Assembly: GCA_951406725.2 (NCBI GenBank)
Contig: OX597818.1
Span: 41,416,001 to 41,480,000 of the forward strand
Length of the DNA stretch: 64,000 bases
Origin: Octopus vulgaris
Taxonomy: Eukaryota
Reading direction: 5' to 3'
The notes beneath the pieces are model-generated. The model worked only from the letters and a program-made list of their open reading frames with translations. It was not told where the DNA came from and ran no database searches. Each line of letters opens with the position of its first letter. The first letter of the stretch is position 1. The translations under genes and the position numbers were made by a program. Of the stretch, positions 13,035-13,196 are shown in pieces.

Positions 13035-13196
13035 CGCCATGATAGATCGTTAGCCACCACACACATTTTTTTCTCTCCTTGTTTTTTCTGTCCCTTTCTG
13101 TAGAAGAGCGTAGGCTCGAAACGTAAAAGACTTTTTCTATTCCTGAGCGCTATACTAATACATCGGTTTGTTTTGTACACCACCTGTCTTCGTCTT
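13035..13196 (+). mobile_element. Hammerhead-like short element, copy 2, inside (TA)n
   Basis: cttt-CTGTAGAA-gagc-gtag-gctc-GAAAC-GTA-aaag; (TA)n on both sides. Confidence 0.7.

Follow-up and report, generated by a model that had tools for sequence, protein, structure and literature searches.

A hammerhead motif with U at position 6 in the pLTR of a recently active Penelope-like element of Octopus vulgaris

Minimal hammerheads are found in the pLTRs of metazoan Penelope-like elements (PLEs). As presented in the consulted sections of Cervera and de la Pena (2014, PMC4209133), they have an extra nucleotide after A9, a G10.1-C11.1 pair, the sequence GAAAC-GU-H, a palindromic stem III and a U-rich flank, occur as thousands of solo motifs from truncated elements, and are slow and dimeric. 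The octopus family analysed here shares this pLTR location and these features of sequence and copy number. It differs at position 6, which is A in the published consensus and in all alignment rows examined but U in octopus, and in its 4-bp stem II, which is shorter than in most published examples. The search descriptor used in that work, as given in the same sections, demanded the canonical core, and a U6 family would therefore have been missed. The extra A, which the first-pass annotation of this locus had listed as unusual, is already part of the published consensus CUGANGAH (PMC4209133, in the portion consulted), and only A6U is unusual.

Three other groups of described systems are relevant. 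The Neptune and Nematis EN+ PLEs (Craig et al. [quoted passage not shown] The Poseidon PLE of the green anole, PAc (Frangieh 2024, PMC11167929, consulted in part), is similar in its internal RT initiation downstream of the hammerhead, its AT-rich target and its uncut RNA template, RNA ends being absent at the cut site. Its hammerhead is protein-assisted, and cleavage is dispensable for its insertion in vitro. PAc has a canonical core, belongs to another clade and has an ORF that overlaps with the ribozyme; in octopus the long ORF has its first ATG about 750 nt downstream of the motif. Metazoan non-LTR retrozymes (PMC7229834; bioRxiv 10.64898/2026.07.22.740005, both in part) are likewise short, high-copy, PLE-related and equipped with a type I hammerhead, but they consist of non-coding, tandemly repeated units of 150-450 bp whose hammerheads are canonical, whereas the octopus units are dispersed and form the end of a coding element.

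A natural substitution at position 6 is known from the hammerhead of phage Bcep176, with reduced but real activity (Perreault 2011, PMC3088659; Naghdi 2020, PMC7151607; both in part). That case is A6C rather than A6U and concerns a single phage sequence with a full stem III, whereas the octopus U6 has been kept through eight subfamily masters. In the consulted part of PMC7151607, natural and engineered A6C hammerheads remain active when Mg2+ is higher or Mn2+ is supplied; one construct cleaves at 0.067/min in 1 mM and 0.33/min in 10 mM Mg2+, and the substitution costs more than 10,000-fold at 0.3 mM Mg2+. In a saturation scan, every single mutant of the CUGA turn was low in activity (PMC9901934). 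In the literature searched (including PMC11014351) no natural PLE hammerhead with A6U is described, although Lünse et al. 2017 may contain one. The element class, the minimal hammerhead, the extra A and the ACGU palindromic stem III are known PLE traits; new are the association of a U6 motif with an active element in intact form, the ladder of subfamilies and an A6 control from the same genome.

Four solo pLTR copies and their parent element

The window is a stretch of 64 kb. A 27-nt hammerhead motif has four matches in it and none in 100 shuffles, and these are the four copies located by the first-pass annotation (Table 1). The annotation was also right about U6 in all four, about a variable N7 (G, A, U and A in the order of Table 1), and about stem II, GAGC-guag-GCUC, with GAAAC-GU-H following it. 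Stem I is intact in the 13k copy (4 bp) and the 29k copy (5 bp), and damaged in the 7k copy (A1.1>C) and the 41k copy (G1.4>U, leaving 3 bp). The four copies have about 160-210 bp of aligned length in common and all end at (TA)n, an association that had been noticed from the letters alone and that extends to 155 of the 187 assigned copies, which carry a TA tract at the 3' end. An Rfam scan of positions 7000-14000 gave no hammerhead family match at E up to 5, and folding z-scores of the motif were not significant. Two copies had been remarked upon for lying on the sense strand of a ChAT gene. The acyltransferase exon is indeed on the + strand, but genome-wide the U6 motif is balanced in orientation (7,901 forward versus 7,829 reverse), and we see no meaning in the placement. 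Two further high-copy repeat families, with members of 350-500 bp, occupy other parts of the window.

Table 1. Coordinates of the pLTR copies, their parts and neighbouring features in the window.
Feature	Position	Strand	Remark
27-nt motif matches	7757-7783, 13098-13124, 29782-29808, 41819-41845	+, +, -, -	window motif search
Solo pLTR copy, G7 subfamily (7k)	7673..7879	+	hammerhead 7753-7788; stem I broken by copy-specific change
Solo pLTR copy, A7 subfamily (13k)	13034..13196	+	begins at 5' hotspot; lacks final ~25 nt
Minimal type I hammerhead of 13k copy	13094..13129	+	
Stem I, 13k	13094-97/13126-29	+	
Core, 13k	C3 13098, U6 13101, N7 13102, extra A 13105	+	
Stem II, 13k	13106-17	+	
GAAA, 13k	13118-21	+	
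ACGU palindrome, 13k	13121-24	+	
Predicted cut, 13k	13125/13126	+	inferred from hammerhead numbering
Second (TA)n tract	about 12999-13034		immediately 5' of 13k copy
(TA)n target tract	13196..13289	.	3' of 13k copy
Solo pLTR copy, U7 subfamily (29k)	29678..29876	-	hammerhead 29776-29813; nested in TA tract of another repeat
Solo pLTR copy, A7 subfamily (41k)	41722..41920	-	hammerhead 41812-41853
Clustered 5' ends	13034-13041, 7673-7682, 41918-41920		also in L006, L024, L063, L184, L185
Choline/carnitine acyltransferase host-gene exon	10434..10610 (about)	+	PF00755, E 1.8e-12; context, outside element
Repeat family 1	5645-6033, 11985-12415, 21985-22465, 50729-51184, 57184-57617, 61819-62312		29k pLTR copy inside a member
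Repeat family 2	17928-18659, 43915-44411, 54912-55460		

The four repeats are solo pLTR ends of an autonomous, recently active PLE that encodes RT and GIY-YIG and inserts into (TA)n. The pLTR copies have a fixed 3' end and a variable 5' length, and in the longest a UTR rich in pyrimidines and CA is followed, further upstream, by a GIY-YIG frame. The first-pass annotation had proposed looking for Penelope RT/GIY-YIG ORFs next to the motif. In a protein search with 17,628 candidates, the 150 that were scored were all 93-100% identical, with open frames of up to 1,211 aa; the element was present in 19 of 20 stretches fetched around long frames, and 18 of these had ORFs longer than 1,000 aa. Two motifs about 4.5 kb apart were found at 15 of the 19 long-ORF loci, and all 34 motifs flanking long ORFs read CUGUUGAA, i.e. 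they have U6. The unit is 4.47 kb long, with a 5'-truncated second unit ahead of it; these upstream partial repeats of ~100-1,480 bp give the partial tandem, with pLTRs of variable 5' truncation, that is typical of PLEs, and a hammerhead motif lies in the pLTR, as in PLEs, here as the A6U variant. The earlier reading of the motif as a minimal type I hammerhead of the Penelope type was right.

The ORF of one locus (L142) is a single frame of 1,059 aa with RT and C-terminal GIY-YIG, the arrangement of EN+ PLEs. Its RVT_1 match exceeds the Pfam cut-off (31.9 versus 29.6 bits), and its GIY-YIG match scores 17.2-20.8 bits, below the cut-off of 22.6, with the motif visible. The C-x4-C-x2-C linker at residues 836-844 matches the CX2-5CxxC linker between RT and EN found in the clades Neptune and Nematis. 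The closest database relatives of the ORF are 53-59% identical to it, the named ones coming from turtle, sea urchin, snails and coral. The element may belong to Neptune rather than Nematis. A retained 5' spliceosomal intron was looked for in the contigs of four runs (contigs only, with their RNA status guessed), which are cut at the upstream edge of the motif, and no supported joint was seen there.

Other arrangements were met among the loci. Inverted pLTR pairs 75-290 bp apart, a known form of PLE insertion, occur at L043, L068/L069, L085 and L253. L467 and L059 hold fragments of a more distant GIY-YIG element with 24-29% identity to the EN region of the U6 element. In L435-L463 an unrelated repeat end is found in convergent pairs 1.5-5 kb apart, resembling the terminal inverted repeats of DNA transposons.

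Position 6 and the motif across subfamilies

In the 2.8-Gb, TA-rich assembly the exact motif occurs 15,730 times with U6 and 180 times with A6. The A6 count is close to that of a T>A control at U4 (106), and most A6 copies are thus point mutants. With stem II left free, cores other than A6 have at least 25,897 matches (control 69). Among the first 100 U6 matches listed, N7 is U in 40, A in 25, C in 22 and G in 13. U6 is therefore the family state of the element, and the first-pass proposal that A6U was fixed in the mobilised master is upheld both by these counts and by the motifs beside the long ORFs. Measured against PLE hammerheads in general, the CUGANGA core has U in place of A6, and the extra nucleotide 9/10.1, G10.1-C11.1, GAAA, the palindromic 15.2-16.2 and NUH are all present; the variant would function like a PLE minimal hammerhead or derive from one.

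Canonical A6 motifs with other loops have 8,369 matches in the same genome (control 35), and one such sister family is associated with RT-thumb and EN fragments of a PLE, with 52-60% amino acid identity to the U6 element. Stems differ between families by covariation, CUUU/AAAG versus GUUU/AAAC in stem I and GAGC/GCUC versus GGAC/GUCC in stem II; covariation, which the annotation had recommended checking, thus holds between families, but none was found inside the U6 lineage. Among the metagenome motifs of the same layout listed (123 loci), 129 have A6 and 5, all singletons, have U6. The presence of A6 in the sister families, in the metagenome motifs and in the published alignment indicates that A6 is ancestral and that U6 arose on the stem of the U6 lineage.

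We considered whether the GUAG loop also occurs in a separate, older A6 subfamily, but this is unsupported, as the A6 and C6 copies are scattered on the tree. Among the matches listed for the oldest group (the first 100 of 826), position 6 is U in 77, C in 15, A in 7 and G in 1. Most of its A6 and C6 copies look like post-insertion changes, although this does not fully account for the excess of A and C.

A total of 256 copies was collected, with 187 in eight U6 subfamilies (S1-S8), 35 in two A6 families and 34 unassigned and excluded from the masters. Median non-CpG copy divergence drops from 8.7% to 0.8% across the eight U6 subfamilies. Seven of the eight have ORF-linked copies; the exception is S6, with no long copy in hand. 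The annotation had suggested a test of core conservation on genome-wide copies. Among the eight masters none of the 34 structural hammerhead columns varies, compared with 31 of 87 columns in the downstream flank (Fisher p = 1.1e-5); at the rate of the flank, about 20 changes would be expected in those 34 columns. From the oldest master to the youngest there are four changes at N7 and three at H17 (which is A or U in each master, never G), counts that are inflated because both positions helped to define some subfamilies. By comparison of the masters, the sole varying positions of the motif are the two that hammerhead catalysis leaves free; a random choice would give this pair in 1 of 630 possible pairs, a figure to which circularity applies. 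Most copies in this analysis were found via the motif itself. The upstream flank (46 of 52 columns variable) was poorly aligned and was excluded from the statistics. Support in the master tree is 41-55% at five nodes, 89% for S7+S8 and 100% for the U6 clade; given the weak internal support, the order from S1 to S8 rests mainly on copy divergence.

Loop II and three blocks of the downstream flank are likewise invariant across the masters, so constraint may act on primary sequence. ACUU after stem I (window 13130-13133) and the GUAG loop (13110-13113) are among the invariant bases. A contact between U1.7 and loop II, as in minimal hammerheads, could account for this.

As a control that does not depend on the motif, we searched 480 kb of unselected tiles and 916 kb of locus flanks with a profile made from the downstream flank alone, which recovers the same core. 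The tiles gave 10 matches, among which the motif was present in 7 distinct copies, all U6. In the locus flanks 17 of 21 matches were aligned; without the purposely fetched L241 and L242, U6 is present in 13 of 15, and the remaining two are decayed singletons. The sole recurring variant in this control is the UUCG-loop pair. This pair (L241:2016 and L242:1953, the latter on the - strand) consists of two old U6 copies with a changed stem II containing a U-U mismatch, and represents a minor subfamily that breaks the invariance.

Origin of the ~200-bp copies

The 5' ends of the copies are clustered. In S1-S6, 65 of 124 copies begin in a peak 50-80 nt upstream of C3, in a mapping whose long 5' extensions may be inflated by low complexity. 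Among 162 copies of the U6 lineage, 70 stop just ahead of a conserved ATG (11 nt upstream or less), 35 reach past it and 57 start downstream or are too decayed to score; thus 70 of the 105 copies that reach the ATG stop there, although 29 loci in this count were picked by a query starting at that point. A similar 5' end is seen in 11 of 23 copies of the A6 sister families. In long copies a TCAKTC hexamer, which we take to be initiator-like, lies at the cluster, 60-80 nt upstream of the core. The cluster is probably a transcription start. After the conserved ATG there is a four-codon upstream ORF (M-L/I-D/N/I-R-stop; window 13039-13053), which is kept in the majorities of S1 and S3-S8, the S2 majority being unreliable there.

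Run-off at the cut site was also looked for. No pile-up was seen among the TA-joined copies (first 100 matches listed), and at most 5 of 34 matches possibly start at the cut site, with a query one base out of register. The ~200-bp copies span the cut site, and their RNA templates were therefore uncut; canonical A6 sister copies also span theirs.

These observations suggest a scheme in which the endonuclease of the element would nick a (TA)n target and RT would start inside the transcript where the first pLTR ends, ~110 nt downstream of the motif. It would usually run off 60-80 nt upstream of the motif, at the probable RNA 5' end, which would leave ~200-bp solo copies. With uncut RNA as template, cleavage after GUA/GUU would be rare or late, and would require either two motifs pairing through ACGU or refolding of the RNA by an element protein. 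With U6 the reaction would be slower, and the monomer would be drawn towards an off-hairpin.

Does the A6U hammerhead cleave?

We put a probability of roughly 0.55 on the pLTR motif being a selected, slow, dimer- or protein-assisted A6U self-cleaving hammerhead. The invariance of the structural positions across eight masters after the A6U change supports this reading, as do the activity kept by A6C variants and the slow, dimeric or protein-assisted action of PLE hammerheads. The odds seem about even that we are dealing with a natural A6U hammerhead that would be kept active by selection, tuned down, and switched on by dimerisation, a metal ion or its own protein. Against the catalytic reading stand the low activity of CUGA-turn mutants, PLE insertion without cleavage in vitro, the rarity of copies that start at the cut site and the folding predictions for monomer and dimer. 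Pairing of U4-G5-U6 with A15.1-C15.2-G16.2 is predicted with P = 0.49-0.98 in six of seven U6 monomers and 0.04 in the seventh, and the corresponding off-pairing with P = 0.01-0.23 in three natural A6 revertants; A6 copies have off-folds of their own. The active dimer is predicted to lie 8-16 kcal/mol above the best dimer fold in seven U6 copies, with nearest-neighbour energies that ignore tertiary contacts.

Possibly, but with a good deal less confidence on our part, catalysis was lost at A6U and the motif has been retained as an RNA signal that works by its fold or its specific sequence, for instance in RT/EN binding or in positioning RT initiation. Such a signal would be compatible with the alternative hairpin favoured by U6, with the invariance of loop II and of the bases after stem I, with the growth of the family, which lacking A6 has reached at least 25,897 motif matches, and with the anole PLE, for which, in the part of the article consulted, cleavage is dispensable in vitro (PMC11167929). 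The uncut templates would also fit, but since A6 sister copies span the cut site as well they are not special to U6, and the restriction of change to N7 and H17 (with the circularity mentioned above), H17 staying A or U, is what a catalytic motif rather than a mere signal would show. Constraint at the DNA level is improbable. In this explanation a downstream promoter or enhancer would lie 60-100 nt past an internal start site and the hammerhead would be a relic; the 5' ends do cluster at an initiator-like site just upstream, and in Drosophila the promoter of Penelope is internal, with control sequences downstream of it (PMC2377424, consulted in part), yet neither the sole variation at N7 and H17 nor the stem covariation between families is explained.

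The first-pass annotation had favoured a non-autonomous, Penelope-like or retrozyme-like family. A 200-bp family of this kind, moved in trans via its own small or circular RNA, would account for most copies being ~200 bp with clustered 5' ends. We nevertheless regard it as very unlikely: in seven of eight subfamilies (not S6) some copies run on into the EN/RT ORF, the loci read show no arrays with the 200-bp unit repeated head to tail, and one third of the copies reaching the ATG (35 of 105) extend past it. As the near-identical, coding long copies are continuous with the 200-bp unit, the unit is the pLTR of an autonomous PLE and not a retrozyme.

Cleavage by PLE hammerheads is slow and was dispensable for insertion in vitro. 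To the question of what role these hammerheads have in PLEs the octopus family brings a natural experiment, in which a catalysis-impairing core change was followed by tens of thousands of copies with the other structural positions frozen. If the RNA cleaves, the core consensus and the CUGANGA descriptors are too narrow and very large families have been missed; if it stays uncut, the motif has another role besides catalysis, one under strong selection. The young intact U6 copies and the A6 sister family make the test simple, and either outcome would be informative; should the A6U hammerhead be active, the sister would be a matched control, from the same genome, for what PLE hammerheads do. This canonical-A6 sister PLE (L494:4866-5956, L495, L491, L464) has a CA-rich 3' UTR of ~1.7 kb.
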